Notes under the pieces: generated by a model
Database searches by the model: none
Seen by the model: only the letters and a program-made list of their open reading frames with translations
What the model was told of the DNA's origin: nothing
NCBI GenBank assembly: GCA_022822365.1
Contig: JAJEBV010000008.1
Coordinates: 169,524-233,523 of the forward strand
Reading direction: 5' to 3'
DNA from: Thermoanaerobaculia bacterium
GTDB lineage: Bacteria; Acidobacteriota; Thermoanaerobaculia; Multivoradales; Multivoraceae
DNA: 64,000 bases
In this document: positions 24,831 through 41,718 of the stretch, piece after piece
Position numbering within the stretch: position 1 is the first letter of the stretch
Layout of the letters: each line of letters begins with the position of its first letter
Program-made: the position numbers and the translations under genes

Positions 24831-24839
24831 TCTCTTCAC

Positions 24840-25349: not shown

Positions 25350-25837
25350 GACTTCATTCTCAGCCTGCGGAGGGCGTCCATGTCGATGGCTGAACGGGAA
25401 GCTCGTTCCGTCTTGGCCGTGGGTGCCGTCTTCGGCGGCGCGTCGACAGATAGGTGCGCCGAGCGCTTGGCCGCGCTGGACACACTGTTGTCGAGCGCTC
25501 CGGGCAAAGGCACATGAAGTACCCACGCGGGCGTGGCACTCCCGCCGCCGGGCACAGGGTTGAGATTCTCCTTGACGGCGAGCGCCGCATCCGCAGTGAC
25601 GACTCTAATCGTCAGATGCAGCCCGACGTCGCAAAGAACCAAGCCGTCCGACTCCAGGTGTCCGCCCGCGATGAGGGCGGGGCCCAGACCCTCTAGCGCT
25701 GTCAGCTCGCGCTCTACGCTTCCGGCCGCAACGTTGGGGCTCCGCTCAAGCGTCGTAGCGATGAGCGTCGTGACCACGTTCCACGCTTCGGCGGCGCTTC
25801 GAACGGGGGAAGCGGCGATTGTCCTTTGTCGCTCCAT
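25346..25837 (-). CDS. small protein (163 aa), candidate HORMA-domain partner (by size and context only)
   Basis: ATG at 25837 (MERQRTIAAS...) lies 1 nt after the Trip13-like stop. Its stop overlaps the next start. Confidence 0.45.
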   Translation of the reverse strand: MERQRTIAASPVRSAAEAWNVVTTLIATTLERSPNVAAGSVERELTALEGLGPALIAGGHLESDGLVLCDVGLHLTIRVVTADAALAVKENLNPVPGGGSATPAWVLHVPLPGALDNSVSSAAKRSAHLSVDAPPKTAPTAKTERASRSAIDMDALRRLRMKS

Positions 25838-25838
25838 T

Positions 25839-26759
25839 TCAGCCCTCCGAACCTCCCTGACTGATACCGCCGTCCTCCATGACCCGCGAGGCCGCCGCGA
25901 GCAGGTCGTCGATCGTCGTACTTCCCGGGTCGAGCACCGTCTCGTCCCGGCCGAGCATCGCCTCCAGAATCGTCTTCCGGACCCGCCGGCCGTCCGCTCC
26001 CGCCAAGCGTCCCGCGACCTCTTCGAGCTGCTCGTCGCAAGCAAGTTCGCCGAGACACGCGTAAGCCGGCGCCATCGACCGAAGAGCGGACCTCAGGATC
26101 GCGACGATTCCCGCAGAATCCGGCACCGGGACGTGAATTTGCACGTCCACCCGCGACAAGAAGGCCTCGTCCAGGACGCCGACGAAGTTGCTCGTTGCCA
26201 CGAAGACCAGATTGGGGAACGCCGTCGTATTCGCGTCGAGCGCCGCCAACACGGCGTCCGTCGCTCGGTGCACGTCTGCCGGATTCGCCGCCAGCGACGC
26301 CTCGCTCCTCGCGACGGCCATCGACTCGATCTCGTCAAGGAGAACGACCGTAGGCACACCGTCGTCGGCAAGGCTCGGCACGTACTCCGCGAGCAACTGC
26401 GTTACAGCGCTCTGGCTCTCCCCATGCTCGGCGCTCATGAGACCGTGGGGATTGACCTCGACCAGCCGCGCTTGACGCTTCGGGGTGATCTTCGCCAGTT
26501 CATGGGCCAGACCACGTGCCAATGTCGTCTTACCTGTTCCCGGGGGGCCGTGTAGCAGGACGAGCCCATGCAGCGCCGTCGTCTCGAAGGGCAGTTCGCG
26601 ACGTAGGCGGAGATTCAACGCCGTGGCTCGGAGCAGACGGTCCTTCACCGAAGCATCAACTACAATCGAGTCCCACAGGCCCGCGTAGGCTGGATCCGGC
26701 ATCTCGCGAACAGCGCGCACGGACTCGGCCGCTTGACTGGGTGCGTTTTCGCTTCGCAT
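25839..26759 (-). CDS. Trip13/Pch2-like AAA+ ATPase
   Basis: ATG at 26759 (MRSENAPS...). Matches Trip13 blocks: LWDSIVVDASVKDRLL, LLHGPPGTGKTTLARGLA, EVNPHGLMSAEHGESQSAV, VLLDEIESMAVAR, NLVFVATSNFVGVLDEAFLSRVD. Confidence 0.85.
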   Translation of the reverse strand: MRSENAPSQAAESVRAVREMPDPAYAGLWDSIVVDASVKDRLLRATALNLRLRRELPFETTALHGLVLLHGPPGTGKTTLARGLAHELAKITPKRQARLVEVNPHGLMSAEHGESQSAVTQLLAEYVPSLADDGVPTVVLLDEIESMAVARSEASLAANPADVHRATDAVLAALDANTTAFPNLVFVATSNFVGVLDEAFLSRVDVQIHVPVPDSAGIVAILRSALRSMAPAYACLGELACDEQLEEVAGRLAGADGRRVRKTILEAMLGRDETVLDPGSTTIDDLLAAASRVMEDGGISQGGSEG

Positions 26760-26831
26760 GACTGCAACTCTACTTCGCAACAGGCGCGACCGCAACCCTC
26801 GAATCCGGCGACTCGAACATTCCCGTGCGGC

Positions 26832-27263
26832 ATGACCATGGTCGATCCCGGTTCCCCTAAGCCAACCGCGGCCCGGCCCTCGGCGAGACCCGCTCCCAAC
26901 CGCCGACGAGATCGCCCTCAGGTGGGCAGCGTTCTCCGCCGAGCCCGCCTGCACCACGACCTCTCGCTACGCGAGGTGGAACGCCGCATCGGCCGGTCCA
27001 ACGCGTATTTGTCCCAGGTGGAGCGCGGCCTGATCAAGCAGCCCGACCCGATCGTTCTCCTGGAACTGGCCGAACTCTACGGCCTGAACTTCGAGACCCT
27101 CGCGGCCTGGGCGAACTGGGTTTCCGCCGACCCGAACCCTTCGGGCGCGCAACCGCGTGACTCAACCGCCGTTCTCGTCCGGCAGGTCATGGAACTCGAC
27201 GCCGCCGAAAGGGCGACGGTTCTCCGCTTCGTCGACTCCATCCTGCGCAAGCGGCGGACGTAG
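26832..27263 (+). CDS. XRE-family helix-turn-helix transcriptional regulator
   Basis: ATG at 26832 (MTMVDPGS...). HTH LSLREVERRIGRSNAYLSQVERG. Divergent from the Trip13-like operon with a 72-bp intergenic region. Confidence 0.7.
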   Translation: MTMVDPGSPKPTAARPSARPAPNRRRDRPQVGSVLRRARLHHDLSLREVERRIGRSNAYLSQVERGLIKQPDPIVLLELAELYGLNFETLAAWANWVSADPNPSGAQPRDSTAVLVRQVMELDAAERATVLRFVDSILRKRRT

Positions 27264-27400
27264 GCACCCCTTCCCTCATGCCTGCACGCGCCAGACCGCT
27301 CCAAGGTCTGCACTCGCAACGCTGCTAGCCGCGCGCCCTCTCCCTCTAGCTTGACCGCGGCCCCCACGCTCGCACCTGTCCAGACACGATCCCCTCCGGT

Positions 27401-28246
27401 TCAACCTCGCTCTGCGGCCTCGTACACCGGCTTCCTCAACTTGAAGAACCACTCCGGCACCATCGGGCTAAGCCGCCGATGTTCGAAGAGGCGGGCCTGC
27501 ACGAGCCGGACGTCGCAAAGTGTCTGACTACCAGACTGCGCCCCAGCCCGTGACAGGAAGCGATGCAGCTTCTCCATGCGGATCCTTGCCGCAGATTGAG
27601 CAGTAACCGCCAATACCACCCACGCGACAAGCCTGAGACACGCCGCCACCAAGAGAACCACGTCCAGCAGTGAAGCCTCTGCAAGCACCGCCCCCAGAAG
27701 GACCGTCACCACCGACGCACCTACCAACGACTTGACGACCCAGATCCACTCCCTGCGTAATCGCTCCTCCCAGCGACAGCTAGCCCTCTGGCAGTGCAAC
27801 TGCGCCGCCACCGGCTCCGCGGGAATGGCTTCCGCTCGATACCAGTCAACCAGATCCTCCGGCGAGTCCCTTCGCGCGCTCCCTTTTCTCGCCAGCTCCT
27901 TCACTCTGTCATCCGTGGGCTGCTCCACACCGCTGTGAGCCGACCAAGGTAGGTCAAGGACGAAACAGTCAAACGCCTCCTGGATCGTCGCAGCTTCCTC
28001 CTTCATCCGGTCCCCCCACCGAGCCAGAAGCGGCTGGTCCACGAACCAAAGCAAGACAACGATGACGGTCGCTGCGTGACTGTCCGACCCCGCCTCCCTG
28101 GTCAAGCCCCAGAGCGCTACAACCGCAACGGCCACCACGCCCCCGAGCCGCACGCCCTCTACCTTCTTGACCTGCCGGTACAGCCAACGCAGCGCCGCCA
28201 GCCTTTCCAGTGACCGCTGGCTGTTCTGCCGCTCCCGAATGCTCAC
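27401..28246 (-). CDS. predicted multi-pass membrane protein (candidate effector)
   Basis: 281 aa, GTG start. Hydrophobic helices (GVVAVAVVALWGL, ATVIVVLLWFV, LVGASVVTVLLGAVLAEASLLDVVLLVAACLRLVAWVVLAV). No enzymatic motif recognised. Confidence 0.5.
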   Translation of the reverse strand: MSIRERQNSQRSLERLAALRWLYRQVKKVEGVRLGGVVAVAVVALWGLTREAGSDSHAATVIVVLLWFVDQPLLARWGDRMKEEAATIQEAFDCFVLDLPWSAHSGVEQPTDDRVKELARKGSARRDSPEDLVDWYRAEAIPAEPVAAQLHCQRASCRWEERLRREWIWVVKSLVGASVVTVLLGAVLAEASLLDVVLLVAACLRLVAWVVLAVTAQSAARIRMEKLHRFLSRAGAQSGSQTLCDVRLVQARLFEHRRLSPMVPEWFFKLRKPVYEAAERG

Positions 28247-28836
28247 CCGCTTCTACCCTCCTCCATCGAATCCTACTCAGCGGGCCTATAGACGAAGTGC
28301 TTAACCGGCGTTCAACGCTCGGGATCCCCGATCTTCTCAGCCGCCGGCACCATCGCATGCTCCACGAAGGCGGTTCCGGCGTCAGAATAGGCGATCAGCA
28401 CGCCGTCCTGTACCACCATCCCCACGGTCGGCATCTGCACGAGAGCCCGCCGCCGTCAATCGGCCCCACCTCCGCCCGTGAGCTCGTCAAAGGCCTGGAG
28501 GACGCGGGCATCCTGATCACCGGCAAGTAGTTCGCTTTCCGGCGTGGGACGGCCGGCCTATGGAGCCGCCCTACGTCCTGGTGTGCCTGTAACGACCGCC
28601 GCCGCACTTGGAGGAGGCAGTGCCGCGGGAGAACGGACCGTTCACACGCGGCTTAGCTCGAACCGCTACGTGGGTACCGCCTGGGCGCTCGAGAGATCTG
28701 CTGGTCCGCGAGTGCGGCACCCGGCCCAAGCCCCGTGTTCATGCCGACTCCGCTCCGTGCGTAGCGCACCAGCGGCACGCCGACGGCCGAAGCTCGTACA
28801 CTGAGCAGCCCCTAGACTGGGCCGGCGCTTCCTCTC

Positions 28837-29349
28837 ATGCTGAAACACTCCACGACCATACGCGACGTGAGCCGTGCGCTTCCAACGCTCGTGCCCTCGG
28901 ACCCCGGTCTTGCCGTGCCTCTCTCGGCCGACCGGCTTGATGCCCACACGAAAGAGCTACGCCACCACTACGACGACCTCTTCCCGGTTATCGATCGCGC
29001 AGGCCACACGCTCGCGGGGGCGATCAAGATGCTCGACCCCGGGGAGAGCCCCGATCCCGGTGGTGAAGGCGTCGCTGCTCTCGAACAGAGCGAGGCCTAC
29101 TTCAAGCACCGTCGAGAGCAGCTCCTGCACCTGCGCAACGCCTTCGTTGAGATCGGCGCTTCGCCTTCGCACGAGATCTTCGAAGCGCTCGACCGCCTCG
29201 ACGAGCTGTACATGTGGATCGTCGTGACGATGCAGGAGGCACGCTGGGACGTCTTGATCTTCAAGGGACTCAAGGCCGGGGCCGCATCCCCAAGGGAGCG
29301 CTCCTTCACGTCCTCAGCCGCGTGGCTGGCGTCGCTTCCCGGCCGTTGA
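28837..29349 (+). CDS. hypothetical protein
   Basis: 170 aa ORF with an ATG start, non-repetitive composition and no recognised motif. Confidence 0.35.
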   Translation: MLKHSTTIRDVSRALPTLVPSDPGLAVPLSADRLDAHTKELRHHYDDLFPVIDRAGHTLAGAIKMLDPGESPDPGGEGVAALEQSEAYFKHRREQLLHLRNAFVEIGASPSHEIFEALDRLDELYMWIVVTMQEARWDVLIFKGLKAGAASPRERSFTSSAAWLASLPGR

Positions 29350-29389
29350 CCTACGCCGTCACGCAGGCAAGGGGATCGGGTCGGGCCAG

Positions 29390-29725
29390 CTACCTGATCA
29401 GCGCGCGGCGCGCGCCGAACGCCTCTTTCGCCCTTGCAGCCCGGTGTTCTTCGTACAGCGCAGGATCAGGGTCGACCTCCACCATCTCGCCGTTCTCGAC
29501 GACCAGTACCTTCGTGCCGTGCACATGCGCGTCCCAGTGCGCGCGGCGCACCGCCCGCTCCATCGCCGCGGGCGCTGCCTGCATGTCGGGATCGTCGAGC
29601 TTCGACACGGGAAGTCGTTCGGACTCGTCCGCCACCGGGGTTTCTACCTCCTCGTGAGAGTCTACGAGATCCGGGTTCACCCGGCCGGCGTTATAGTCGA
29701 GAAGCTGAGGCTGGGAGCCGGTCAT
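29390..29725 (-). CDS. hypothetical small acidic protein
   Basis: Internal ATG of the track ORF 29390..29968 gives a ~111 aa acidic product. Divergent from the multiubiquitin gene with a 55-bp gap. Confidence 0.3.
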   Translation of the reverse strand: MTGSQPQLLDYNAGRVNPDLVDSHEEVETPVADESERLPVSKLDDPDMQAAPAAMERAVRRAHWDAHVHGTKVLVVENGEMVEVDPDPALYEEHRAARAKEAFGARRALIR

Positions 29726-29780
29726 CTGACCACCGCCTGGCCTCTCGGCGAGAGGAACTGGAGGTCTCCTGAGGGGCAGC

Positions 29781-30236
29781 ATGATCCACTTCACCATCAA
29801 CGGACAGGAGTTCGAGTCTCCGCAGAAACGCGTCTCCGTCGAGTGGCTCCTGAAGTTGATCGGCTGGAGCCCGAAGGACGCCCAGCTCGTGCGTGAGGTC
29901 ACGGGCGAGACGTGGTCCGACCCGTCCGCTGAGGTCGAGTTGCGCGAGGGGGACAAGTTCGAGGCCAAGCCGCGTCGGGGCCCGCTGCCTCCGGAGTCAA
30001 AGATCCACTACAAGGTGAACGGAGAGCCGCAGGTCACAACGAAGACGCCGATGATCCTCGAGGAAATCCTGCGCCGCGCGGGCGCCGACGCCGCCATCGA
30101 CCTCAACCAACTGGGGAGCTACTACCTCGACAACGTGGGTACGGGCGCCAGGTACGAGAACCTCGACGACGAAGTGCCGATCGTCGACGGCGACGAATTC
30201 GTGGCCCTCTACGCCGGACCGACGCCCGTCGCCTGA
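29781..30236 (+). CDS. multiubiquitin-like protein (two tandem beta-grasp/Ubl repeats)
   Basis: 151 aa. Two ~70-aa repeats each start with IH(F/Y)x(I/V)NG and end with (D/E)GDxF (IHFTINGQEF...EGDKFE; IHYKVNGEPQ...DGDEFVALYAG). First gene of an E2/E1/JAB operon. Confidence 0.6.
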   Translation: MIHFTINGQEFESPQKRVSVEWLLKLIGWSPKDAQLVREVTGETWSDPSAEVELREGDKFEAKPRRGPLPPESKIHYKVNGEPQVTTKTPMILEEILRRAGADAAIDLNQLGSYYLDNVGTGARYENLDDEVPIVDGDEFVALYAGPTPVA

Positions 30237-30240
30237 CGCA

Positions 30241-30621
30241 GTGCTCGAGACCATCGCCCGAGAGTTGCGGGAACTCGATGTCGAGGCCCGCGTCGTGCAT
30301 TCGTGGAACGGAATGGGGGGCGGCGGCGTCGTTTTCCCGCTCCGTGCGCCAAGCGGCCGCTTCAAGGGGAAGACACTGCAGCTTGGCCTGAGCTTTCAGG
30401 AGGATGCCTACCCTGAGTACCCGCCGCACTTCGTCCACTTTCGGCAAGCGGAGATCGAGGGCACGCACTTCACGATGCACTCGAAGCACGAGTTCGAAGG
30501 CGCCGAATGGTGGGCCTTCAGCTTCCCTCCGAGCGACTTCTGGGACCGTCTGGCGCCATCGGAGAAGAACATGCGGACCTACGTCCGGCGCCATCTCTAT
30601 CGCGTCCTGGAGCAATTGTGA
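30241..30621 (+). CDS. E2/UEV-like protein (UBC fold without a catalytic Cys)
   Basis: 126 aa, GTG start 5 nt after the previous stop. GKTLQLGLSFQEDAYPEYPPHFVHF mirrors the E2 core (FPxDYPFKPPKVxF), but the protein contains no cysteine. Confidence 0.5.
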   Translation: MLETIARELRELDVEARVVHSWNGMGGGGVVFPLRAPSGRFKGKTLQLGLSFQEDAYPEYPPHFVHFRQAEIEGTHFTMHSKHEFEGAEWWAFSFPPSDFWDRLAPSEKNMRTYVRRHLYRVLEQL

Positions 30622-32075
30622 CCTTCGAGGCGGCGTTCGTCGAGTCCACTCACGATGCAGCTTGCCGCCACCTGCTGGCGCATCTGCGCTCGGGCAGACG
30701 GCAGGAAGATCTCTGCTTCGCGCTGTGGCGGCCAAGTACCGGCGCCAGTCGGACGACCGCCCTGATTTCGGAGCTCGTCTTGCCGGAGGAAGGCGAGCGC
30801 ACCCTGCACGGCGGCGCGAGCTTCCAGCCGAACTTCCTGTCACGCGCCCTTCGCCTCGCCTGCGACCAGAACGCAGGTCTGGCCTTCCTGCACAGCCATC
30901 CGGTACCCGGCTGGCAGGGCATGAGTAGTGCGGATGTGAAGGCCGAACGGGACCGCATCGGCGGGCCGGCCCGAGCCACTGGTCTTCCGCTCGTAGGCCT
31001 CACGCTCGGAACGGACGAATCGTGGAGCGCCCGTTTCTGGAACTGGGAAGGCGGCGAGCTCGAGCGAACGTGGTGCCCGAAGGTGAGGGTCATCGGTCGT
31101 CGCCTGCGTCTGACCTGGAACGACGAACTGGTGCCGCCGCCCCGGCGGCGAGCGGTCCTCCGGCGCACGACAGACACTTGGGGCTGCGCGCGCCAATCAG
31201 ACCTGGCTCGGCTGCGGATAGGAGTCGTGGGTCTCGGGAGCGTCGGGTGCCTCGTTGCGGAGACACTCGCCCGCATCGGCGTCGAGAACATCGTTCTCGT
31301 GGACGCGGACCAAGTGAAGCGCCACAACCTGGACCGTCTCCTGTACGCTGGCGAGGACGACATCGGCCGCCTCAAAGTCGAACTCGCAGCCGAGAATCTG
31401 CGCCGGTCGGCGACGGCCGCGAACTTCACCGTCGAGTCCCACGTCGGCTGGCTCCAGCAGAGCGACTGCTATCGCGCCGCGCTGGACTGCGACGTCCTGT
31501 TCTCCTGTGTGGACCGACCTCTTCCAAAGGACCTTGTGAACCACATCGCCTACGCCCACTGCGTCCCCGTCGTGTTCGGCGGCGTCTTCGTCGACACGAA
31601 GCGGGACAGCACACTCGGCCAAGCGACCTGGAGCGTGGTCCGTGCCGGGCCCGAGCGCCGCTGCCTGCGATGCGACGGGCAGTACACGACCTCGGACGTC
31701 GCCATGGAGCGCGACGGCTCCCTGGACGACCCGAACTACATCGCCAGACTCACCGGCGGCAGACCTACGAACCAGAACGTGTTCCCGTTCAGCGCCAACC
31801 TCGCCAGTCTCATGACGCTCGAGATGATTCGAATGGTCGTGGGCGACACATGGTGGCCCCAGAATGCCGGCAAGCTGGACTACAGCTTCGTGCCGAACGT
31901 GCTTCGCACGGAAGACAGCCGCTGCCGCGAGTACTGTGAGGTGGCGAACCGGACGGCGCTGGGAGATCACATCGCCTATCCGTTCCTCGAAGCGGCGGCG
32001 CCCTCCGCCAACCTCGGGCGGATGGCTCGACTGCGAAGCTGGCTTCGGAAACTGGTAGGCGGGAGGGCCCCATGA
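30618..32075 (+). CDS. JAB/JAMM deubiquitinase-like domain fused to an E1-like (ThiF/MoeB) adenylyltransferase
   Basis: GTG start overlapping the E2-like stop (GTGA). JAMM motif LAFLHSHPVPGWQGMSSAD (HxHx7Sx2D). E1 Rossmann IGVVGLGSVGCLVAETLARIGV...VDADQVKRHNLDRLL. Cys-rich region CLRCDG. Confidence 0.8.
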   Translation: MTFEAAFVESTHDAACRHLLAHLRSGRRQEDLCFALWRPSTGASRTTALISELVLPEEGERTLHGGASFQPNFLSRALRLACDQNAGLAFLHSHPVPGWQGMSSADVKAERDRIGGPARATGLPLVGLTLGTDESWSARFWNWEGGELERTWCPKVRVIGRRLRLTWNDELVPPPRRRAVLRRTTDTWGCARQSDLARLRIGVVGLGSVGCLVAETLARIGVENIVLVDADQVKRHNLDRLLYAGEDDIGRLKVELAAENLRRSATAANFTVESHVGWLQQSDCYRAALDCDVLFSCVDRPLPKDLVNHIAYAHCVPVVFGGVFVDTKRDSTLGQATWSVVRAGPERRCLRCDGQYTTSDVAMERDGSLDDPNYIARLTGGRPTNQNVFPFSANLASLMTLEMIRMVVGDTWWPQNAGKLDYSFVPNVLRTEDSRCREYCEVANRTALGDHIAYPFLEAAAPSANLGRMARLRSWLRKLVGGRAP

Positions 32076-33340
32076 GCGCCATCACGAGTCTCGCTCTGAC
32101 GGACGTGCGCTGCTTCGAGGGTACTCAGCGTGTCGGACTGCCCCGCATCGCGGTGGTGGTGGGAGAGAACAGCGCAGGGAAGTCGACCTTCCTGGGCTGC
32201 CTTCGCGGCATGGCCAAACTGGCGAGTCTCGACGACCTGGACGACGAGAACCACTTCGATCAGCCGCCGTTCAACATGGGGCCGTTCAGCACGATCGCCC
32301 GCTCCGGCGCGGTAACCTTCGCGCTGGAAGCGACATTCGAGGGCCACAGCTACGAACGCGTGCGCGTCGTCTACGACGAAGGTCCCGACGGCGAACCCCG
32401 CGAGCGGGAGCTGGAATTCGTGCTCAGTACGAAGGGGCCCGACGCACTTGCCTTCGGCATCACGCGGATCGACCCGTCAGACGATGAACACAGGGAGACG
32501 TGGCGAGTCGCCGGACCGGGTTTCGAGTTCGACTTCGAACAGTCGTCGGTTTCCTACCGGCAGTTCAGCACTTGGCTCTCGCGCTCCGTCCGTCGGGGCA
32601 ACCTCCCGCACGACGGCGATCCGACCTTGAGGCGAAAGCGAACCGGCGACGTGACGCCGGAAGCGGATCGGGCGTTCACCCGCTTCGTGAACTTCTTCCG
32701 GGAAAGCCCTCGCGTTCCGCCGCCCGACCAGAAGCTCCTGGTTGTCGCCAACAACCCGGTCGGTTGGCCGCGCGACCGCTCGTTCGCCACAAACCCGTTC
32801 GGCCGGGCGATGGACGAGCCGAGGCTCTCCGAGATTCGGAAACTGGGTAGTGAACTCGGCCTCTTCGGCGACTTGGAGATTCGGCGCGGACCCGCTGGCG
32901 AGTACGAGGTGTGGGCCGACGCCTCCGGCGAGAGCCGCAACCTCGTCGACGTCGGCTTCGGCATTCAGAGCGCGCTGCCAATGCTCCATGCCATCGTTTC
33001 TGCGACGAAGGGGGCCACGCTCCTCCTGCAACAGCCCGAGGCTCATCTGCACCCAAGAACGCAGGCTGCGCTGGTGCGCGTGATCGTGTCGCGCGGTAGT
33101 CGGCTCCTGGTCGAGACGCATAGCGACCACGTTCCGGACTGGTTCCGTATCGCCGCGATGTCGGGGCAGGTGGATCCGCAAGACGTGGGGATCGCCTACT
33201 TCCACCGCAGTGACAACGGCGCCTCCACGACCCTGCACGACATTCGGCTTGACGATCAAGCGAATCTGGACGATCCACCGCGCGGTTTCCGGGACTTCTT
33301 CGTCGACGAGACCGAGCGACTTCTCGGCTTCCGCCGGTAG
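32072..33340 (+). CDS. ABC-type (AAA_15/AAA_21, OLD/SMC-like) ATPase
   Basis: ATG overlapping the previous stop (ATGA). Walker A GENSAGKST, Walker B/D-loop LLLQQPEAHLHP. Confidence 0.75.
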   Translation: MSAITSLALTDVRCFEGTQRVGLPRIAVVVGENSAGKSTFLGCLRGMAKLASLDDLDDENHFDQPPFNMGPFSTIARSGAVTFALEATFEGHSYERVRVVYDEGPDGEPRERELEFVLSTKGPDALAFGITRIDPSDDEHRETWRVAGPGFEFDFEQSSVSYRQFSTWLSRSVRRGNLPHDGDPTLRRKRTGDVTPEADRAFTRFVNFFRESPRVPPPDQKLLVVANNPVGWPRDRSFATNPFGRAMDEPRLSEIRKLGSELGLFGDLEIRRGPAGEYEVWADASGESRNLVDVGFGIQSALPMLHAIVSATKGATLLLQQPEAHLHPRTQAALVRVIVSRGSRLLVETHSDHVPDWFRIAAMSGQVDPQDVGIAYFHRSDNGASTTLHDIRLDDQANLDDPPRGFRDFFVDETERLLGFRR

Positions 33341-33349
33341 GGCTGGGAC

Positions 33350-33844
33350 GTGTGTACTCGGGTAGTGCTGGACGCAAGTGCGTTCGACGTCGTCAACGAG
33401 GAATCGCCGGCGTCGGCCGGCGTGCAGCTCCGACATTGGATAGCCGAAGGGCATGGGCGGGTTGCGTACTCCACCTACGATCGTTGCGGGAAGCAACTCA
33501 AGTGGGACGACAAGGTCTGGGCACTCGTTCGCCGCTACAGCCAGAGCGGCCTGGCGAATCGAGTAGCTGACCAAGATGTTCAACGGGAAGAAGAACGGCT
33601 GCGACCCGTCGTGACACGCTCCGGGGAGAACGACAGGCAAATGCTCGCCCTCGCGGCCGCCTCTGATGCGAGGGTGATGGTCGTCAAAGATGGGAACCTG
33701 ACGAAGGACTTTGAGGACGTGGCGATCCTGCCGAAGGTGCCGGGCTATCGGCGTCGGGCCTTCCCGAAGGAGCTTCCGAGCCCGGCACGCAACGACTTCC
33801 TCCACAGGCGTCGCTGCTCACGGCGGCTGTCCTCACGTTCCTGA
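33350..33844 (+). CDS. small protein with a PIN-like signature (tentative)
   Basis: GTG start 10 nt after the ATPase stop. The N-terminal VVLDASAF and the later SGENDRQMLALAAASDARVMVVKDG resemble PIN acidic-residue blocks. Weak call. Confidence 0.35.
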   Translation: MCTRVVLDASAFDVVNEESPASAGVQLRHWIAEGHGRVAYSTYDRCGKQLKWDDKVWALVRRYSQSGLANRVADQDVQREEERLRPVVTRSGENDRQMLALAAASDARVMVVKDGNLTKDFEDVAILPKVPGYRRRAFPKELPSPARNDFLHRRRCSRRLSSRS

Positions 33845-34003: not shown

Positions 34004-37000
34004 ATGGCCCTGAACCCGGTCGTCTTCACGGAGAAGGTCCTCCAGAGCTTTCTCCGCTACCAGTTGCGGGCCTATCCGTTCGCGGATCCGCGCCTGCACG
34101 GGCAGATGCGGGAACTGCTTTCGCTCGACGAAGCGCGGCAGTCGCCGCTGCTGCAGGGACCGTTCGTCAGCCTCTCGCGGCCCTTCCGCGGCGGCGCGGC
34201 TGTGGCGGATCTGGCGGATGAGGGCCTGCTCCACCCTCACCTGGAGCAACGGATCCCGAACGACATCAAGGAGCTCTACCGGCACCAGGAGAAGGCGATC
34301 CGCGCGATCGTCGGGGGGCGCTCGACGCTCGTTTCGACCGGCACCGGCTCCGGCAAGACGGAGTGCTTCCTCTACCCGATCGTCAGTCGCTGCCTGCGGC
34401 TGCGGGACGAGGGTGCGGCGGCCGGCATCAGCGCCGTGATCGTCTATCCGATGAACGCGCTGGCCGAGGATCAGTTGATGCGGCTGCGCTCGCTGCTGGC
34501 GGGCACGGGCGTTTCGTTCGGGATGTACGTCGGCAAGACGCCGGAGAGAGAAGGCGACGTGGTCGGCGTCAGGCTTCCTCCGGGATCTTCCCAGGCGGAC
34601 TACGAGGCGCAGCTAGAAGCGACGAGGAAGGCCAAGAGCGGCGAGAGCGTGTTCCCGGCCGAGGAGGCCTGCTCGCGGGAGGCGATGCGTTCGGCCGGCG
34701 AGCAACCGCGCATCCTGCTCACGAACGTGAAGCAACTGGAACTGCTTCTCACCCGCCAGCGGGACGCCGAGCTGTTCCACGGCGCCCGGCTCGACTACCT
34801 CGTGTTCGACGAGGCTCACACGTTCACCGGAGCGATGGGCGCCGAGACCGCGTGCCTCGTCCGCCGTTTACGGGCCTTCTGCGGGCGACAGGCCGCGGAC
34901 ACGGTCTGCGTCGCCACCTCGGCGACGATCGTCGACCGCGAGCGGCCGGAGGCGGCTCGCGCCTTCGCGTCACGGTTCTTCGGCGTGCCGGAGGAGTCCG
35001 TCGAGACGGTCGCGGAGGACTACGAGGAAGAGGTCTGGAGCGACGAGAGATGGCTGCCAGCGGCAGCGCCGCACGGAGACACCGCCGAGATCCTGGCTGA
35101 CTGCGTGGCGGCGGTCGAGGATGACGTGGAAGGGCCGGGAGACGCTGTCCGCCGCTCTTACCGGGCGCTTGCCGGCCGGGATCTGGACGGTGACAGTGAG
35201 CCCTGGCCCGAAGCGCTCTACGGAGCCCTGGCGCGGAGCGAGATCGTCTATCGCCTGAACGAGGCGCTACACGAGCCGCGGCCGCTCCACGAACTGCCGC
35301 CGAAGCTCGCGGAAGCCATCGGCCGGGGGATCACTGAAGCCGAGATCCTGGCCTGGCTGACCCTGGCCGCCGCGGCTCGAAGGGATGGCCGGCCTCTACT
35401 GCGGCCGGTGGTCCACGGCTTCGTGCGCGGGATTCCCGGCGCGGTCGTCTCCTTTCCGGGCGAGACGGACCAGCCTCGGCTCTGGCTGGCCGCGGAGGAC
35501 GAGATCGAGCACGGCGGGACGGCGCCGGCCGAGGGGACCGAACCGTCAGGCGAAGCGCGGTCGGCGCGTCTGCCCGTGCTCACCTGCACGACCTGCGGCC
35601 AGCACTACTATGAGGCCCATCTCGAGGACTTCTCGTTCACCGGCAAACGCCCGGGTGGCGGCGAGCCGCATGGGGACGGCGTCGTCTGGCGAAAGCTCGA
35701 CGAGGCCCGGGAGGGCAAGCGAGTGCTCCTGGTGGATCGCCTGATCGGCGGCGACGAGCACGACGCAGAGGACGAAGGCGGCCCGGCCCAGGAACGACGC
35801 AACGGCAACAGTGAGGCCGCGAGCGTCCTCGAACGGCGAACCGCTCCGGTTCACCTCTGCCGGTACTGCGGCGCGGCGCATGAACGACCGGGCGGGAACT
35901 GCCTCGCCTGCGGCGCGCCCGGCCCGAGAATCCGCCTTCACGCCGTCCGCCAGAAGAAGGACAGGCCCGGCGTCCTGACGAGCTGCCTCTCGTGCAACGC
36001 GCTGGGCGGCCGGGGCGGAGGCGGCCACTACCGCGAACCGGCGCGGCCCGTCCGCGCCAGCAACGCCGCCGACGTGCACGTTCTGGCTCAGGACATGGTC
36101 CAACAATCGGAGCGGAGGCGGCTGCTCGTGTTCTGCGACAACCGGCAAGACGCTGCGTTCCAGGCCGGCTGGATGAAGGACCACGCCCGCCGGTTCCGGC
36201 TGCGGTCGTTGATGGCCGACGGGCTCAAGGATGGGCACAGGTCGGTGGGCGACCTGACGTGGTTCCTGGAAGACGCGCTGGAGGAGGACGAGGCGCTCTC
36301 TCGCGCGTTGATCCCGGAGGTCTGGGTCGTGGCCCGCAAGGAGGCTGTCGGCCAACGCCACCGCGAGGAACGGCGGAAGTTCCTGCGCATGCAGGTGCTG
36401 CGCGAGATCTCGGAGTCCGCCCGGCAACCCCTGGGGCTCGAACCCTGGGGCCGGATGAAGGTCGACTACGCCGGTCTGGACGCCTCGCTGCCGTGGATCC
36501 AGGATCAGGCGAACCGGCTCGGCCTGCCGCCGGAATCGATGCGCGAAGGGGTCGCCGCAGCACTCGACTACGTTAGGCGGCAGAAGGTCCTCCACGACGC
36601 GGAGTACAAGACGTTCACCAAGAACTGGCTCGCCGGCGACCTGGAGATCCAGCAGGGCTATCTCCGGCGGACTGGCGGGCCAAAGGGCGTCAAGTTGAAA
36701 CGCGGCCCCGGCGACGATCGCGGCCGCGTCCTGCAATGGTTGAGTGAGGGCGGCCAGACCACGATGAGGCAGATGGCCGTGAAGTGGGGCGCCGAGCCGG
36801 AACAGGCGGAGGAGCTGCTGCGGAGCCTGTTCGAGATGTTGGTAGAGCGCGGCCTGCTGCAATCGGTGCAACTCCTGGGCGCACACAGAAACCCGATGCC
36901 GAACGCCAGCGGCGTGTACCAGGTCGACGCCGACCGAATCGAGCTGTCGCCCCACCGCGGCGTCTACCGCTGCCGCAGTTGCCGCGCCCGCACGGTCCGC

Positions 37001-40000
37001 CGGACGCCGCACGACCGCTGCCCGGCCTGGCGGTGCAACGGCACGCTGGAGTGGCTGCGCGAAGACCCGGACGACTACGACCTGCAGCTCCTGGACGGCG
37101 GCTACTCCATGCTGCGCCCGGAGGAGCACACCGCGATGGTTCCGAACCGGGAGCGGGAACGGCTGGAGAACCTGTTCAAGAGCCAGAGCGACGCGGTGAA
37201 CTGCTTCGTCTGCACCGCCACGCTTGAGCTCGGGGTCGACATCGGCGCTCTCGACGCCGTGCTGATGCGCAACGTACCGCCCCTGCCCGCCAACTACTGG
37301 CAGCGAGCCGGCCGCGCCGGCCGACGCCATCGGATGGCCGTTGATCTGACGTACTGCCGGCCCGTGTCTCACGACCGCGCCTACTTCGCCCAGCCCGAGA
37401 AGCTGCTGGCCGGGCGGGTCGACCCGCCGGCCTTCAACCTGAGCAACGACGTGATGGTCCGCAAGCACGTCAACGCTTCCGTTCTGACCGGGTTGCAGCG
37501 GCTCAGTCGGGAGAACGGTGCCGCGCCGGGCAGACTTCCCGCGGCTGAACGGGAGGAGATCGGAGCGGCGCTCGAACGCTGCCTGCCGCGCCGCGTGTCG
37601 GCCTGGCTGTTCGAGGGCGACACCGTGCGTACCGCGCCGTTCGATTTCGGGCCCCTCGCCGAGGTGATCCGGCGGCACCGGCGTACGCTTCTCGCCGAAG
37701 CCGAAGACGCCTTCGCCCAGGGTTGGCCGGCAGCGGACGCCGAGGCGGCTACGCGCGACGTGCTGGGCCGCTGCGTCGACTCCTTCACCGCCGGCCTGAA
37801 AGAAGCCGAACGCTCTCTGCGGCGCCGGCTGGAGTGGGCGCTCGCCCAGATGGAGAGGCTGAACGCGACCCGCCGACCGCGCGGCACGCTCGACCCGGAG
37901 GACAAGGCTCTGTTCCGCCGTTGCGAACAGCTCGTAGAGCGGCTCAAGGGACTTGCGCGCACGAACCGCCGCGACGCCCAGGGGCACTACGACGCGAACA
38001 CGTTCAACGTGTTGGCGGCGCAGGGCTTTCTTCCCGGCTACGGGCTCGAGACCGGGTCCGTCCAGGCGATCGCGGAAGTGCCGGTCTGGCACTCCGGGGC
38101 GCTCGCCTTCAACCTGCCCCGGCCGACCGGCATCGCGCTGCGCGAGTACGTCCCGGGCAACCTGATCTACGCCAACGGGCACCGTTTCGTGGCCAGGAGG
38201 TTCCTGCGCGGTACAGGCGAAGACCGGGAGGAGATGCCCGCGTTCGAGGTCTCGACCGAGCACCAGGCGGTGCGGCAGTGCGACGCCGGCGCTCCGGCAT
38301 CGACGATCGGCGGCGGAACGCTCAGCACGCTCGCGGTCTGCGACGTGGACCTGGCCCATCGGTCCCAGATCTCGGACGACGAGGACTACCGCTTTCAGAT
38401 GGCGGTTGCCGTCCACGGCGTCGAACGCGACGGGCACCGCGGCGGCCGCGCCTTCCAATGGGGCGAGCAGGATGCGTTGCTACGTCACGGCGTCGAACTG
38501 CGACTGGTCAATGTGGGTTCGTCGTCCGCGATCGGCGACGGTTCCGGGCTCGGCTACCCGGTATGTACGGTCTGCGGCCAGAGTGTCTCGCCGCTGTCCT
38601 CCGAGCGCCAGCAGACCGAGTTCACCAAGAGCCACCTGGAGCGGTGCGGGCGCCCGGTGGATCGGATCGGCTTCCACGCTGACGTCACTGCCGATGTCCT
38701 CTCCCTGCCGAGCCTGCCGGAGCCAGCGACCGCCTACAGCGTGCTGGAGGCACTGCGGTTCGGTGCCGCCGGGGTGCTGGACATGCACCTGGACGATTTA
38801 CAGGTCCTGGTCGTGGGCCAGGTCGACCGTCCCGAAGTAAACGCGCTGCTGTGGGACCCGATGCCCGGCGGTTCGGGCCTGCTCGATCAACTCGTCGAGC
38901 GCTTCGACGAAGTCGCCGAGGCCGCGGAAGCCACTGTCGGCGGTTGCGCGTCCGGCTGCGACCACTCGTGCATCGACTGCCTCCAGACCTTCCGAAACGG
39001 CTACTACCACAGCCATCTCAGCCGAAAGACAGCGCTGGAGTGCCTGCGCCAATGGGGGCGCGAACTGGCGCTTTCGCACCCCATTCCCGCTGCCACGCCA
39101 GCCGGTGGCGAGCCCACCGCGCAGCCCGTGAACGAGGCCGAACGCCGCCTCAGGCACCTGCTGACAGCAGCGGGCTTCGCCGAAGGCGTGCGGGGAGAAC
39201 AGATCAACCTCGGCCCGGGCCTGGGCACGACGACGCCCGACGTCATCTACCCGGGCCATGGCGGCATGCCCGATGTCTGCGTCTACCTCGACGGCCTGAG
39301 CGAGCACCTGCACGGGAATCCCCGGACCGCCGAGCGGGACCGGGAGATCCGGTACTGGTTGCGACAGCAGGGCTACGAGGTGGTCGAGATCACCGTGACG
39401 GACCTTGATGACGCCGGAGCGATGGCACGCCACTTCGTGCGGCTCGCGATGTACCTGGGCGCCGAGGAGGTGCGGAAGGCTGTCAGCGTCGGCGGTGCGT
39501 GGTTTGAAGAGGCGGCACCGGCAGGGCCAGCCGCTGCGGCTCCGCCGCCGGAGGAAACTCAGCCAAGCCGGGCCGCCGTACTCCGATTCGTCGAGCCGAC
39601 CCCGGAGAACCGCTACCGAAGCTGCGTGCCGTTTCTGGAAGACCTCGAAGCCGCAGCGGGCAACTTCGGCGACCCTCACGGCGCCTTAGGCGAGATTGGG
39701 GATTCCGGAACCCCTTGGATCGAGGTCGACTTCGGGCGCCAGCCAACGCCCGACATGTTCGCGGCCAGAGTGGCTGGAAGGTCGATGGAGCCACGTATCC
39801 CAGACGGTTCCGTCTGCCTGTTCCGCAGAGGCGTCGCCGGGAGCCGAACTGGCCGCATCGTGTTGGCCCGGCTACGGGACGCCGTCGACCCGGAAACCGG
39901 CGAGCGCTTCACCGTGAAGCGCTATCGAAGCGAGAAGCGGACGGCAGCCGATGGGCCTTGGCGCCATGTCCGGATCACGTTAGAACCGCTGAACCCCGAG

Positions 40001-40117
40001 TTCGCACCCATCGAGCTAGTCGCAGAAAACGACCAAGGTTCGGATGCGATCAACATCCTGGCCGAGTTCGTCGACGTGCTTCACACGGACACTCGGCGCG
40101 AGTCGATGAGGAGCTGA
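34004..40117 (+). CDS. giant multidomain protein: DEAH-box helicase (DrmA-like), Zn ribbons, DUF1998 (DrmB-like), DUF559-like endonuclease and a C-terminal LexA-type S24 peptidase
   Basis: 2037 aa. Walker A TGTGSGKTE (about 34340), DEAH LVFDEAHTF (about 34805), motif VI QRAGRAGRR (about 37300). CxxC pairs CTTCGQ and CRYCGA...CLACGA. DUF1998-like Cys cluster CTVCGQ...CASGCDHSCIDCLQTF (about 38540-39010). DUF559-like AERRLRHLL...VCVYLDGLSEH...YEVVEI (about 39138-39415). S24 domain RVAGRSMEP...GRIVLARL...FTVKRY...LEPLNPEFAPIELV (about 39700-40114) preceded by AAAG (about 39650). Confidence 0.85.
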   Translation: MALNPVVFTEKVLQSFLRYQLRAYPFADPRLHGQMRELLSLDEARQSPLLQGPFVSLSRPFRGGAAVADLADEGLLHPHLEQRIPNDIKELYRHQEKAIRAIVGGRSTLVSTGTGSGKTECFLYPIVSRCLRLRDEGAAAGISAVIVYPMNALAEDQLMRLRSLLAGTGVSFGMYVGKTPEREGDVVGVRLPPGSSQADYEAQLEATRKAKSGESVFPAEEACSREAMRSAGEQPRILLTNVKQLELLLTRQRDAELFHGARLDYLVFDEAHTFTGAMGAETACLVRRLRAFCGRQAADTVCVATSATIVDRERPEAARAFASRFFGVPEESVETVAEDYEEEVWSDERWLPAAAPHGDTAEILADCVAAVEDDVEGPGDAVRRSYRALAGRDLDGDSEPWPEALYGALARSEIVYRLNEALHEPRPLHELPPKLAEAIGRGITEAEILAWLTLAAAARRDGRPLLRPVVHGFVRGIPGAVVSFPGETDQPRLWLAAEDEIEHGGTAPAEGTEPSGEARSARLPVLTCTTCGQHYYEAHLEDFSFTGKRPGGGEPHGDGVVWRKLDEAREGKRVLLVDRLIGGDEHDAEDEGGPAQERRNGNSEAASVLERRTAPVHLCRYCGAAHERPGGNCLACGAPGPRIRLHAVRQKKDRPGVLTSCLSCNALGGRGGGGHYREPARPVRASNAADVHVLAQDMVQQSERRRLLVFCDNRQDAAFQAGWMKDHARRFRLRSLMADGLKDGHRSVGDLTWFLEDALEEDEALSRALIPEVWVVARKEAVGQRHREERRKFLRMQVLREISESARQPLGLEPWGRMKVDYAGLDASLPWIQDQANRLGLPPESMREGVAAALDYVRRQKVLHDAEYKTFTKNWLAGDLEIQQGYLRRTGGPKGVKLKRGPGDDRGRVLQWLSEGGQTTMRQMAVKWGAEPEQAEELLRSLFEMLVERGLLQSVQLLGAHRNPMPNASGVYQVDADRIELSPHRGVYRCRSCRARTVRRTPHDRCPAWRCNGTLEWLREDPDDYDLQLLDGGYSMLRPEEHTAMVPNRERERLENLFKSQSDAVNCFVCTATLELGVDIGALDAVLMRNVPPLPANYWQRAGRAGRRHRMAVDLTYCRPVSHDRAYFAQPEKLLAGRVDPPAFNLSNDVMVRKHVNASVLTGLQRLSRENGAAPGRLPAAEREEIGAALERCLPRRVSAWLFEGDTVRTAPFDFGPLAEVIRRHRRTLLAEAEDAFAQGWPAADAEAATRDVLGRCVDSFTAGLKEAERSLRRRLEWALAQMERLNATRRPRGTLDPEDKALFRRCEQLVERLKGLARTNRRDAQGHYDANTFNVLAAQGFLPGYGLETGSVQAIAEVPVWHSGALAFNLPRPTGIALREYVPGNLIYANGHRFVARRFLRGTGEDREEMPAFEVSTEHQAVRQCDAGAPASTIGGGTLSTLAVCDVDLAHRSQISDDEDYRFQMAVAVHGVERDGHRGGRAFQWGEQDALLRHGVELRLVNVGSSSAIGDGSGLGYPVCTVCGQSVSPLSSERQQTEFTKSHLERCGRPVDRIGFHADVTADVLSLPSLPEPATAYSVLEALRFGAAGVLDMHLDDLQVLVVGQVDRPEVNALLWDPMPGGSGLLDQLVERFDEVAEAAEATVGGCASGCDHSCIDCLQTFRNGYYHSHLSRKTALECLRQWGRELALSHPIPAATPAGGEPTAQPVNEAERRLRHLLTAAGFAEGVRGEQINLGPGLGTTTPDVIYPGHGGMPDVCVYLDGLSEHLHGNPRTAERDREIRYWLRQQGYEVVEITVTDLDDAGAMARHFVRLAMYLGAEEVRKAVSVGGAWFEEAAPAGPAAAAPPPEETQPSRAAVLRFVEPTPENRYRSCVPFLEDLEAAAGNFGDPHGALGEIGDSGTPWIEVDFGRQPTPDMFAARVAGRSMEPRIPDGSVCLFRRGVAGSRTGRIVLARLRDAVDPETGERFTVKRYRSEKRTAADGPWRHVRITLEPLNPEFAPIELVAENDQGSDAINILAEFVDVLHTDTRRESMRS

Positions 40118-41639: not shown

Positions 41640-41718
41640 GCTCGGGCTCCTCAGGTGGGCAGACTCGTAGCCTACGCTCCGGCCCCCCGGTCGTCCAACT
41701 CCAGAGGCGACTGGTAAC

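Follow-up and report, generated by a model that had tools for sequence, protein, structure and literature searches.

How restriction-type defence spares its host when repair or recombination makes unmodified DNA is an old question. So far the mechanism has been worked out for just a handful of type I enzymes, which are known to lose HsdR by proteolysis after DNA damage (restriction alleviation; PMC4231737, PMC12707154), ClpXP being the protease. Among recently defined defence systems, ARMADA type I (Bell et al. 2025, bioRxiv, PMC12458937) is the one most like the locus described here. Its ArmC shares with our protein the helicase core, the MZB/DUF1998 module and the Vsr-type nuclease, and both are accompanied by a SNF2 helicase of the BrxHII kind and by a PglX-like methyltransferase. 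However, that paper places Vsr as the C-terminal domain of ArmC (representative WP_108720193.1), and its text, figure legends and domain table make no mention of an S24, LexA or peptidase domain. The experimentally active ArmC of E. coli ARMADA II also has no S24 among its listed domains (Bell et al. 2025, PMC12458937).

We analyzed a 64,000-nucleotide stretch of a Thermoanaerobaculia genome (the window), in which a 2037-residue ArmC carries a LexA-type module at its C-terminus. The features of the locus are summarized in Table 1.

Table 1. Features of the armC locus. Positions are nucleotides of the window; residue numbers refer to ArmC.
Feature	Position (nt)	Strand	Description and basis
armA	13946..17347	+	BrxHII/RapA-like SNF2 helicase, 1133 aa; Pfam SNF2-rel_dom, Helicase_C
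armB	17344..22683	+	PglX/type IIG-like N6-adenine methyltransferase; Pfam Eco57I; PADLOC REase_MTase_IIG, DrmMI
Cargo defence genes	22800..33844		About 11 kb between armB and armC; Pfam, PADLOC, GC
armC	34004..40117	+	2037-aa YprA-family helicase-nuclease with C-terminal S24 module; ORF, Pfam, PADLOC
RecA1 helicase lobe	34280..34819	+	Pfam DEAD, E 1.6e-21
Walker A GTGSGKT	34340..34360	+	Residues 113-119, in RecA1 lobe
DEAH motif	34808..34819	+	Residues 269-272, in RecA1 lobe
RecA2 (Helicase C-terminal) lobe	37136..37327	+	Pfam Helicase_C, E 7.2e-11
MZB domain (MrfA Zn-binding, ex-DUF1998)	38747..38983	+	PF09369, 31.8 bits (cut-off 24.2)
Vsr/DUF559-type PD-(D/E)xK nuclease	39137..39508	+	About residues 1712-1835
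Low-complexity Ala/Pro linker, nuclease to S24	39506..39577	+	Residues 1835-1858; length variable
S24 (LexA/UmuD/cI-type) module and cleavage-site region	39578..40084	+	Residues 1859-2027
Predicted scissile bond Ala1885-Gly1886	39656..39661	+	Within L-E-A-A-A/G-N-F-G
Ser1927, predicted catalytic	39782..39784	+	G-R-S-M-E-P; aligned to cI Ser149
Lys1972, predicted general base	39917..39919	+	F-T-V-K-R-Y; conservation among homologues

Judged by its sequence, the gene encodes the ArmC of an ARMADA type I system, with armA and armB as partners; a defence role is predicted for type I. Bell et al. 2025 (Table S1) label as 'ARMADA Type I helicase' two homologues with full-length identities of 63% (MFA5786294.1) and 61% (MBN2437725.1), and it is through these two labels, hence indirectly, that the protein is placed in the ARMADA type I branch of the YprA phylogeny. 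The architecture agrees: a YprA-family helicase with fused MZB/DUF1998 (Pfam DEAD, Helicase_C and MZB; match to the MrfA/YprA structure 6znp, E 1.2e-27) is followed, after the DUF1998 module, by a Vsr-type nuclease. The helicase motifs are kept in the homologue set (GSGKT in 134/141, DE[AC]H in 141/141), and D1746, D1763, H1770, D1779 and E1795 of the nuclease are invariant. Of the BrxA-like insertion behind RecA1 and the Zn-binding beta-barrel within RecA2 that are expected of a type I ArmC, the sequence shows only CxxC pairs, at about residues 527-665.

A first-pass annotation of this DNA had named the same domains, namely a DEAH helicase, a DUF1998 Cys cluster, a DUF559-like nuclease and S24, and Pfam and fold searches bear these calls out, the second as Zn-binding MZB/DUF1998 and the third as a nuclease of the Vsr/DUF559 type. 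Its framing of the protein as DISARM DrmA/DrmB had to be given up. The best PADLOC match is DruE-like (DruE3, E 1.4e-112) and the best solved structure is DruE (9tu7, E 1.5e-49), whereas DrmA models cover only the helicase C-lobe (residues 1048-1136, E 1e-12); moreover, DUF1998 is fused to the helicase and is not a separate DrmB. The neighbouring genes scanned with Pfam and PADLOC include no PLD nuclease (DrmC). Druantia type III was similarly rejected, the nuclease being of the Vsr type and not PLD, and PADLOC found no match to DruH among the neighbouring genes that it scanned.

The TTG start codon of armB overlaps the stop codon of armA, for which the PADLOC matches were DrmD (E 1e-190) and BrxHII. 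In the window the two partner genes lie 11 kb upstream of armC. In many relatives armB is directly upstream, and armA precedes armB-armC in related loci. The window and most relatives that bear S24 follow the order armA-armB-(cargo)-armC, whereas Bell et al. give ArmC-first as usual for type I. The intervening cargo comprises a DUF3644 gene, a type III CBASS (SMODS, HORMA, AAA/Trip13-like and S_4TM), a ThiF/E1-like gene, and an AAA_21 ATPase with a 164-aa partner; its GC content is 0.61-0.66 as against 0.68-0.72. The same slot carries different cargo in three other loci. The cargo defines the architecture of the locus and lies outside the putative S24 switch.

The last roughly 180 residues of ArmC, reached through a flexible linker, are a complete LexA-type S24 module that is catalytically competent as far as its sequence can tell. 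PF00717 matched the entire protein with 37.2 bits and its last 237 residues with 42.7 bits (E 5.2e-11), the cut-off being 23.3. The module has the LexA-type beta fold, with structural matches to LexA, cI and UmuD', including RecA-bound LexA; 8gms, 8gmt and 8s7g are among the PDB entries matched. The reading of this C-terminus as S24 is thereby confirmed. We evaluated conservation in 144 homologues and in 82 species genomes whose S24 domains are 38-88% identical to that of the window. Near-invariant in both sets are the Ser/Lys dyad, G-x-S-M-x-P and [A/V/I]-A-A-G-x-[F/W]. Ser1927 is kept in 143/144 homologues and 82/82 loci; Lys1972 is kept in 143/144 and 81/82, the remaining locus being truncated. 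The intact dyad that had been proposed is thus found throughout the family. The Ala-Gly pair, proposed to sit where LexA and cI cleave themselves, does align with A111-G112 of lambda cI, 41 residues before Ser1927, and is present in 81/82 loci; in the homologue alignment, A1884 is kept in 142/144, A1885 in 144/144 and G1886 in 140/144. One divergent lineage has Cys-Gly instead, which is the UmuD-type scissile pair. The structure model puts the predicted scissile site in a loop of low confidence that follows a beta-strand, a setting like that of the cleavage-site region of LexA.

Between nuclease and S24, linker residues 1843-1853 are absent from most homologues, and pLDDT falls below 50 at model residues 153-166. 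The two-domain model of Vsr and S24 gave a pTM of 0.56 with domain pLDDT above 90. Together with the disordered, variable-length linker, this value offers no sign of a plug fixed on the nuclease, although the S24 domain might dock on the helicase instead.

Far from being peculiar to this locus, the fusion forms a large conserved family, found in thousands of proteins and in at least 452 species genomes. Cultured hosts include Pseudomonas aestuarii, Marinobacter aromaticivorans and Alcaligenes aquatilis. The first-pass annotation knew of no described DrmA/DrmB-S24 fusion, and we likewise found no description of the helicase-S24 fusion in the searchable literature, although automatic annotations already give members LexA/S24 names (for example, 'YprA.../SOS-response transcriptional repressor LexA'). 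Type I HsdR subunits end in copies of the module that are about 50-55% identical, PF00717 being carried by 119 of the best 120 HsdR relatives, and so do Eco57I/N6_Mtase plus Type_ISP_C (type ISP-like methyltransferase) proteins. In crude neighbour-joining trees, the HsdR and type ISP-like copies nest within the diversity of the ArmC-borne modules, and a long branch separates the subfamily as a whole from E. coli LexA. Each of the three hosts is an ATP-dependent motor nuclease, or a fusion with one, and is partnered with a methyltransferase. The module occupies the C-terminus in every case, although the nuclease is N-terminal in HsdR and adjacent to the module in ArmC; this constant position is what a C-terminal degron exposed by cleavage requires. 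ArmC representatives that lack S24 stop right after Vsr. Since these end at the nuclease and no S24 is listed for the active ARMADA II ArmC, the module is best regarded as an add-on regulator and not part of the catalytic machinery.

Our best explanation, which we hold tentatively and at slightly less than an even chance, is that self-cleavage stimulated by RecA filaments inactivates ArmC, a form of restriction alleviation encoded in cis. Each of its elements is inferred, from self-cleavage and its triggering by RecA to the degron and the inactivation. In the manner known from LexA, cI and UmuD, RecA-ssDNA filaments arising during DNA damage or recombinational repair would prompt the S24 module to cut its own chain between Ala1885 and Gly1886. 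The cut would detach the S24 core of roughly 150 residues and leave the helicase-nuclease with a new C-terminus of the form ...L-x-[A/V/I]-A-A, similar to those of the ssrA tag and of the N-terminal fragment of LexA; Leu occupies the predicted -5 position in 142/144 homologues, with Ala-Ala at -2/-1. Strong ClpXP degrons are marked by a terminal Ala-Ala with an upstream Leu (PMC10862746), and latent ClpX signals are exposed by LexA cleavage (PMC10584840). Proteases of the ClpXP type would then clear the cleaved enzyme, so that the chromosome would be protected when repair or recombination yields unmethylated self sites or RecA-coated ssDNA that are otherwise open to attack by the enzyme. Because the presumed degron residues are also needed for cleavage, their conservation cannot separate the two roles. 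Furthermore, alleviation of EcoKI targets individual translocating complexes and is not driven by SOS signalling in general (PMC4231737), which makes the analogy with it one of function and not of mechanism. An SOS-triggered off-switch could also be exploited by DNA-damaging phages, which speaks against this direction.

The structural and conservation data that point to a competent self-cleaving module would also fit a switch of opposite sign, in which the tethered S24 domain auto-inhibits ArmC, or holds it in an inactive oligomer, until RecA-ssDNA on replication or recombination intermediates of the phage triggers cleavage and releases active enzyme. UmuD is indeed activated by cleavage, cleavage of cI and LexA starts a response, and related DruE enzymes are reported to engage ssDNA-containing phage replication intermediates on which RecA filaments could form. 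We nevertheless consider activation unlikely, if deserving of some weight. ArmC, HsdR and type ISP enzymes without S24 are complete and need no release step; adjacency to the nuclease is not conserved, given its N-terminal position in HsdR; the long, disordered and variable linker and the pTM of 0.56 give no confident fixed orientation of Vsr and S24; and coupling to SOS would unleash the nuclease in ordinary DNA damage. A RecA-ssDNA-triggered switch, as first proposed for this protein, is plausible, but the activating direction proposed with it is not favoured. Because HsdR of type I systems and type ISP-like proteins bear the same module, the off direction is at least as strongly indicated, and it is the one that we favour.

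Some S24 proteins cleave without RecA, and some never cleave, which also tells against the favoured model. In another reading, the module would serve mainly for dimerization or as an adaptor docking on RecA filaments, with self-cleavage absent or irrelevant. To our knowledge, the S24 C-terminal domains of all characterized members dimerize, translocating restriction enzymes often need two motors for cutting, and the RecA filament groove is bound by LexA and UmuD (8gms, 8gmt, 8s7g). Dimerization or scaffolding alone would not need the dyad and scissile site, however, and Ser, Lys and A-G (or C-G) are kept in essentially every member, across phyla and three host families, which makes a non-proteolytic role rather improbable. 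It is more doubtful still that the module cuts a phage or locus protein with an A-G site in trans, or cleaves itself as signal-free maturation. UmuD cleaves intermolecularly within dimers and extra small genes often lie next to armC, but the AAG site in cis is the only universally conserved candidate substrate, and the neighbouring genes differ between loci and so supply no conserved partner. Finally, the single-sequence Pfam score (37-43 bits) is modest, as a chance resemblance or a decayed, functionless remnant would have it; that reading, to which we leave practically no probability, is refuted by a score above the gathering threshold, strong fold matches and strong purifying selection on the whole module in thousands of proteins.

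We judge it evenly balanced whether a mobile S24 subfamily has been repeatedly recruited to the C-termini of ArmC, HsdR and type ISP/IIG-like enzymes as a RecA-filament-sensing switch that ties restriction to the state of DNA damage. If so, restriction alleviation (or activation) would be encoded in cis, which is undescribed for any restriction or defence system, and a LexA-like domain in the motor-nuclease subunit would offer a simple, directly testable answer to the question of self-protection, and one that covers three enzyme families together. The ARMADA systems would gain a further level of regulation, and RecA filaments, as the SOS signal, would act beyond transcription factors and UmuD on defence enzymes too. 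Should the switch activate instead, it would represent a new mode of infection sensing. In either direction, the conserved Ser, Lys and Ala-Gly are clean targets for mutation.

Compared with known systems, the locus resembles DISARM in having a distantly related YprA-family helicase with DUF1998 and neighbours similar to DrmD and DrmMI. DruE of Druantia type III belongs to the same YprA lineage but has PLD nuclease domains and a DruH partner, whereas ArmC has a Vsr-type nuclease and is accompanied by ArmA and ArmB; the S24 profile matched no solved YprA-family chain. The module has the fold of LexA, lambda cI and UmuD, together with their Ser-Lys dyad and a predicted scissile Ala-Gly bond (Cys-Gly in one lineage) in a strand-loop region about 40 residues before the Ser, and the predicted new C-terminus is LexA-like (...A-A). 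Unlike these proteins, it is attached to a helicase-nuclease of roughly 1850 residues in place of an HTH domain or the short UmuD arm, it has a conserved N-terminal extension, L-R-x-V-x-P...R-Y-x-x-C-V-P-L, and its Gly-to-Ser spacing is 41 as opposed to 34 in LexA. The likeness to ClpXP-dependent alleviation of EcoKI lies in proteolytic control of a motor-nuclease subunit, HsdR, of a methylation-dependent restriction system at times when DNA damage or recombination leaves self DNA exposed (PMC4231737, PMC12707154), and in some type I enzymes the S24 module occurs on HsdR itself. In EcoKI, translocating complexes are attacked in trans by the protease through an unidentified degron, and there is no autoprotease domain, whereas the proteolysis proposed for ArmC would begin in cis.

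The helicase-nuclease that the first-pass annotation assigned to a DISARM-like system is, as judged by its sequence, ArmC of an ARMADA type I system and a component of neither DISARM nor Druantia III. ARMADA is defined by three components: ArmC, a helicase of the YprA family that ends in a Vsr nuclease; ArmA, a BrxHII/RapA-like helicase; and ArmB, a PglX-like methyltransferase (PMC12458937). The assignment is based on the presence of all three components in the window and on two proteins, MFA5786294.1 (P0144) and MBN2437725.1 (P0209), that are 63% and 61% identical, respectively, to the window's ArmC over its full length and that appear under 'ARMADA Type I helicase' in Table S1 of the defining study (PMC12458937). 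Both of these proteins carry PF00717. The nearest solved structures to ArmC were 9tu7, a 2108-residue DEAD/DEAH helicase (E 1.5e-49), and 6znp (MrfA/YprA). The closest PADLOC model was DruE-like (E 1.4e-112), and the DISARM DrmA models matched the helicase C-lobe only (E 1e-12). Druantia III was ruled out despite the top PADLOC score: the nuclease is of the Vsr type, not PLD, and no DruH was found among the scanned neighbours. DISARM was likewise ruled out, since the DrmA models match weakly and over part of the protein only, DUF1998 is fused rather than encoded separately, and a scan of the neighbours revealed no PLD gene. The nearest genomes, compared over the Vsr-S24 region, were Acidobacteriota MAGs: Thermoanaerobaculia at 90% identity and Candidatus Multivorans at 87%. 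By exact look-up, neither the window's ArmC nor the database protein P0060 had an identical entry.

Features of the ARMADA locus and of related S24-bearing proteins (nucleotide positions are those of the window unless prefixed by a locus, in which case they are local to it; P-numbers are database proteins)
Feature	Position or identifier	Strand	Remarks
armA, SNF2 helicase	13946-17347		PADLOC DrmD and BrxHII
armB, type IIG/PglX-like methyltransferase	17344-22683		TTG start overlaps upstream stop codon
DUF3644 gene	22800-23846		
Type III CBASS, SMODS	23973-24839	-	
Type III CBASS, bacterial HORMA (bacHORMA_2)	24840-25526	-	
Type III CBASS, AAA/Trip13-like	25839-26957	-	
HTH ORF	26733-27263		
Type III CBASS, S_4TM	27401-28246	-	
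Weak Multi_ubiquitin match	29781-30236		Neighbour of ThiF/E1-like gene
ThiF/E1-like gene	30507-32075		
AAA_21/NsnB-like ATPase	32072-33340		
164-aa partner of AAA_21 ATPase	33350-33844		
ArmC ORF, 2037 residues	34004-40117	+	Translation and codon-position GC
DEAD/DEAH helicase core of ArmC	residues 93-180		Pfam, E 1.6e-21
Helicase_C of ArmC	residues 1045-1108		Pfam
MZB (MrfA Zn-binding, formerly DUF1998) of ArmC	residues 1582-1660		Pfam
Peptidase_S24 of ArmC	residues 1889-2007		Pfam
121-aa ORF	41029-41394	-	
DUF433 protein	41394-41837	-	Abuts 121-aa ORF
Sulfatase gene	41719-44382		DUF433 pair between armC and sulfatase
Fic/DOC protein	44379-45368	-	
Type_ISP_C proteins ending in S24 module	P0387, P0389, P0405, P0412, P0420, P0421, P0422		~50% identity
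HsdR-S24 subunits	L083:6935-10486; L084:6839-10624		HSDR_N, SWI2_SNF2, T1R_D3-like, Peptidase_S24

The codon-position GC pattern of the armC ORF resembles that of genuine genes of the window (68% GC), and its helicase motifs are intact: Walker A, GTGSGKT, at residue 113 and DEAH at residue 269. The MZB domain lies within residues 1500-1700, where the first-pass annotation had expected DUF1998. The S24 tail is likewise real, as had been proposed: with the whole protein as query, Peptidase_S24 scored 37.2 bits, and with the last 237 residues it scored 42.7 bits (E 5.2e-11). Both values exceed the curated Pfam cut-off of 23.3 bits. A single-sequence phmmer search of these 237 residues against the PDB returned no match. 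A profile of 23 S24 modules yielded weak E-values (0.007-0.02) to cI and LexA; in its alignment, the Ala-Gly pair coincided with the scissile bond of lambda cI (HVQA|GMF), and the serine with cI Ser149.

The C-terminal region (residues 1691-2037) was modelled with AlphaFold2 using an alignment of 62 homologous sequences. The model (mean pLDDT 81.9) comprises two well-folded domains (pLDDT > 90) joined by a disordered linker, with no confident packing of Vsr against S24 (pTM 0.56). Using Foldseek, the S24 domain matched the LexA, cI and UmuD' set at probability 1.0. The isolated Vsr region gave no significant match in Pfam, so the Vsr call was taken from the fold search. The predicted scissile site falls within a loop of low confidence (model residues 194-202) directly after a beta-strand (184-193); the cleavage-site region of LexA is likewise a strand followed by a loop.

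The putative catalytic and scissile residues are conserved. Among 144 aligned full-length homologues (61-92% identity), Ser1927 and Lys1972 were each kept in 143, in keeping with the dyad noticed at first pass, and Gly1925, Met1928 and Pro1930 in all 144; the Ala-Ala-Gly at 1884-1886 was kept in 142, 144 and 140, respectively. Of 82 genome loci, one set at species level with S24 domains 38-88% identical to that of the window, 81-82 contained the motif series [A/V/I]-A-A-G-x-[F/W] ... G-x-S-M-x-P ... K. The site in P0423, an 1878-aa protein of a divergent ArmC-like lineage, is A-A-C|G rather than Ala-Gly. The scissile pair of UmuD is Cys-Gly, and the P0423 site is thus of the UmuD type. Such conservation is what purifying selection on an enzyme and on its in-cis substrate leaves behind; it does not bear the signature of a scaffold or of a chance match.

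When 8000 candidates from a full-length ArmC search were scored, 2904 proteins reached E <= 1e-10. Of the top 120, nearly all carry DEAD, Helicase_C, MZB and Peptidase_S24, and the motifs were present in five of the six top-120 proteins lacking a precomputed PF00717. In a scan of one genome per species, the Vsr-S24 region occurred in at least 452 genomes, spanning Acidobacteriota, Actinomycetota, Chloroflexota, Spirochaetia, Planctomycetota, Gemmatimonadota, Cyanobacteria, Verrucomicrobiota, Myxococcota and Pseudomonadota. Three cultured strains carry it: Pseudomonas aestuarii, Alcaligenes aquatilis and Marinobacter aromaticivorans. In P. aestuarii SA3-5 and M. aromaticivorans D15-8P, armC is at L070:4991-10942 and L073:5042-10987, respectively. 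Searching plasmids with the S24 module (tblastn) gave a single match, on a Halomonas replicon, where the ORF is unannotated and appears disrupted. Among representatives at 50% identity, many ArmC-like proteins of ~1760-1825 residues stop right after Vsr, without S24. In a crude neighbour-joining tree of ArmC from which the S24 region was left out, the main S24-bearing clade was monophyletic and nested among S24-less ArmC. Because two S24-bearing representatives, P0423 and P0294, fell outside this clade, the tree suggests that ArmC lineages acquired the module more than once.

An earlier homologue search using the C-terminal 437 aa returned gene fragments only. Many database entries for the family are fragments of 245-760 aa, some from long-read assemblies with broken genes. 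Since one of them, P0064 (L001:7175-12190), is part of a broken gene in a long-read assembly, stand-alone 'DUF1998-S24' entries need checking before any is taken for a genuinely split gene.

In many relatives, armB directly adjoins armC (e.g., loci L020, L025, L030 and L070-L074). In the window, the two are separated by an insert of ~11 kb (22800-33844) with a GC content of 0.61-0.66 versus 0.68-0.72. The slot holds an AAA_21 gene and a 163-aa gene in L002 (L002:8032-9992), a RES-domain gene in L003, and AbiJ/ApeA/nSTAND3/Zeta genes in L004, a close relative that has the downstream sulfatase in common with the window. Because the cargo differs between these four loci, the armB-armC junction inside the ARMADA operon is a hot spot at which other defence genes insert. 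In L002, as in the window, the AAA_21 ATPase is followed by a ~163-aa protein with no Pfam match just before armC, and weaker AAA_21 matches (29-41% identity) lie upstream of armC in L015, L062 and L066. The ATPase and its small partner may be a two-gene accessory or independent system. Downstream of armC, the DUF433 protein and the 121-aa ORF may constitute a toxin-antitoxin pair.

The representative search also returned proteins matching the S24 module alone, N-terminal extension included, at ~50% identity. Type_ISP_C was found in seven of ten such proteins scanned, together with Eco57I in five and N6_Mtase in two; these seven are predicted to be type ISP/IIG-like enzymes or fragments thereof. 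In P0420 and P0417, a further domain of ~195 aa follows the S24 module. The module also ends type I HsdR subunits, where it is 52-55% identical to that of ArmC and retains the AAG site, the Ser and the Lys. An HsdR-S24 query retrieved a large family of ~1180-residue proteins, with PF00717 in 119 of the best 120 (P0427-P0546), from Myxococcota, Planctomycetota, Gemmatimonadota and Gammaproteobacteria. At L084:2773-6846, upstream of HsdR-S24, are genes for an AAA_21 ATPase, a DarT ADP-ribosyltransferase and a Macro-domain (DarG-like) protein; L084 is another locus in which defence or toxin-antitoxin cargo adjoins a restriction gene. A crude tree built from S24 modules showed the copies on HsdR and ISP proteins intermixed with each other and nested within the ArmC-borne diversity, far from E. 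coli LexA. This nesting makes the module look like a mobile C-terminal accessory dedicated to ATP-dependent restriction enzymes with a methyltransferase partner.

The ARMADA study lists BrxA-like, Zn-barrel, MarR-like and Vsr domains for type I ArmC; its section on additional domains mentions no S24 domain, and the terms S24, LexA, UmuD, peptidase and protease are absent from its text, legends and supplementary tables (PMC12458937). Searchable full texts on helicase/DUF1998-S24, HsdR-S24 or restriction-S24 fusions, and later ARMADA, ArmC or YprA papers, yielded nothing relevant, and no description of HsdR-S24 was found. The novelty suggested at first pass thus holds for the searchable literature, yet automatic annotation already shows the fusion: members are called 'ATP-dependent helicase YprA (DUF1998 family)/SOS-response transcriptional repressor LexA' at JGI, and the NCBI label for fragments is 'S24 family peptidase'. 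What is new is the undescribed regulatory module on a type I ArmC, and it has wider implications for restriction enzymes of type I and of the type ISP-like kind.

With its conserved fold, dyad and scissile site, the module looks competent; it appears flexibly tethered in the model and is always C-terminal on its host enzymes. As relatives without S24 exist, the basic enzymes can do without it. A self-cleavage switch, as first proposed for a DISARM system, is plausible for ARMADA: the module would cut its own chain between Ala1885 and Gly1886, most likely triggered by RecA-ssDNA filaments by analogy with LexA, cI and UmuD. A purely structural role is unlikely because the catalytic residues are conserved.

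The direction of the switch is uncertain. Activation of the enzyme by cleavage, the initial proposal, is viable and carries about half the weight of an off-switch. By analogy, inactivation is favoured because all three host families share the liability of attacking self DNA that is unmodified once damage has been repaired or recombination has taken place, the new end would be degron-like, C-terminal placement is invariant, and Vsr and S24 are not confidently packed. After the cut, ArmC would end in L-x-[A/V/I]-A-A, and this exposed C-terminus would act as a ClpXP-type degron. The module is C-terminal both where the nuclease is N-terminal (HsdR) and where it is adjacent (ArmC), which would suit a degron at the C-terminus more than a module that plugs the active site. 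Leu occupies position -5 of the predicted new C-terminus in 142 of 144 homologues, and Ala-Ala is essentially always present. The N-terminal fragment of LexA reportedly ends in VAA, a finding attributed to Neher et al. 2003. In strong ClpXP degrons, the terminal Ala-Ala is critical and an upstream Leu favours recognition (PMC10862746), and LexA cleavage exposes latent ClpX signals (PMC10584840). In type I enzymes, the problem of self-attack is solved by proteolysis of HsdR, that is, by restriction alleviation (PMC4231737, PMC12707154).
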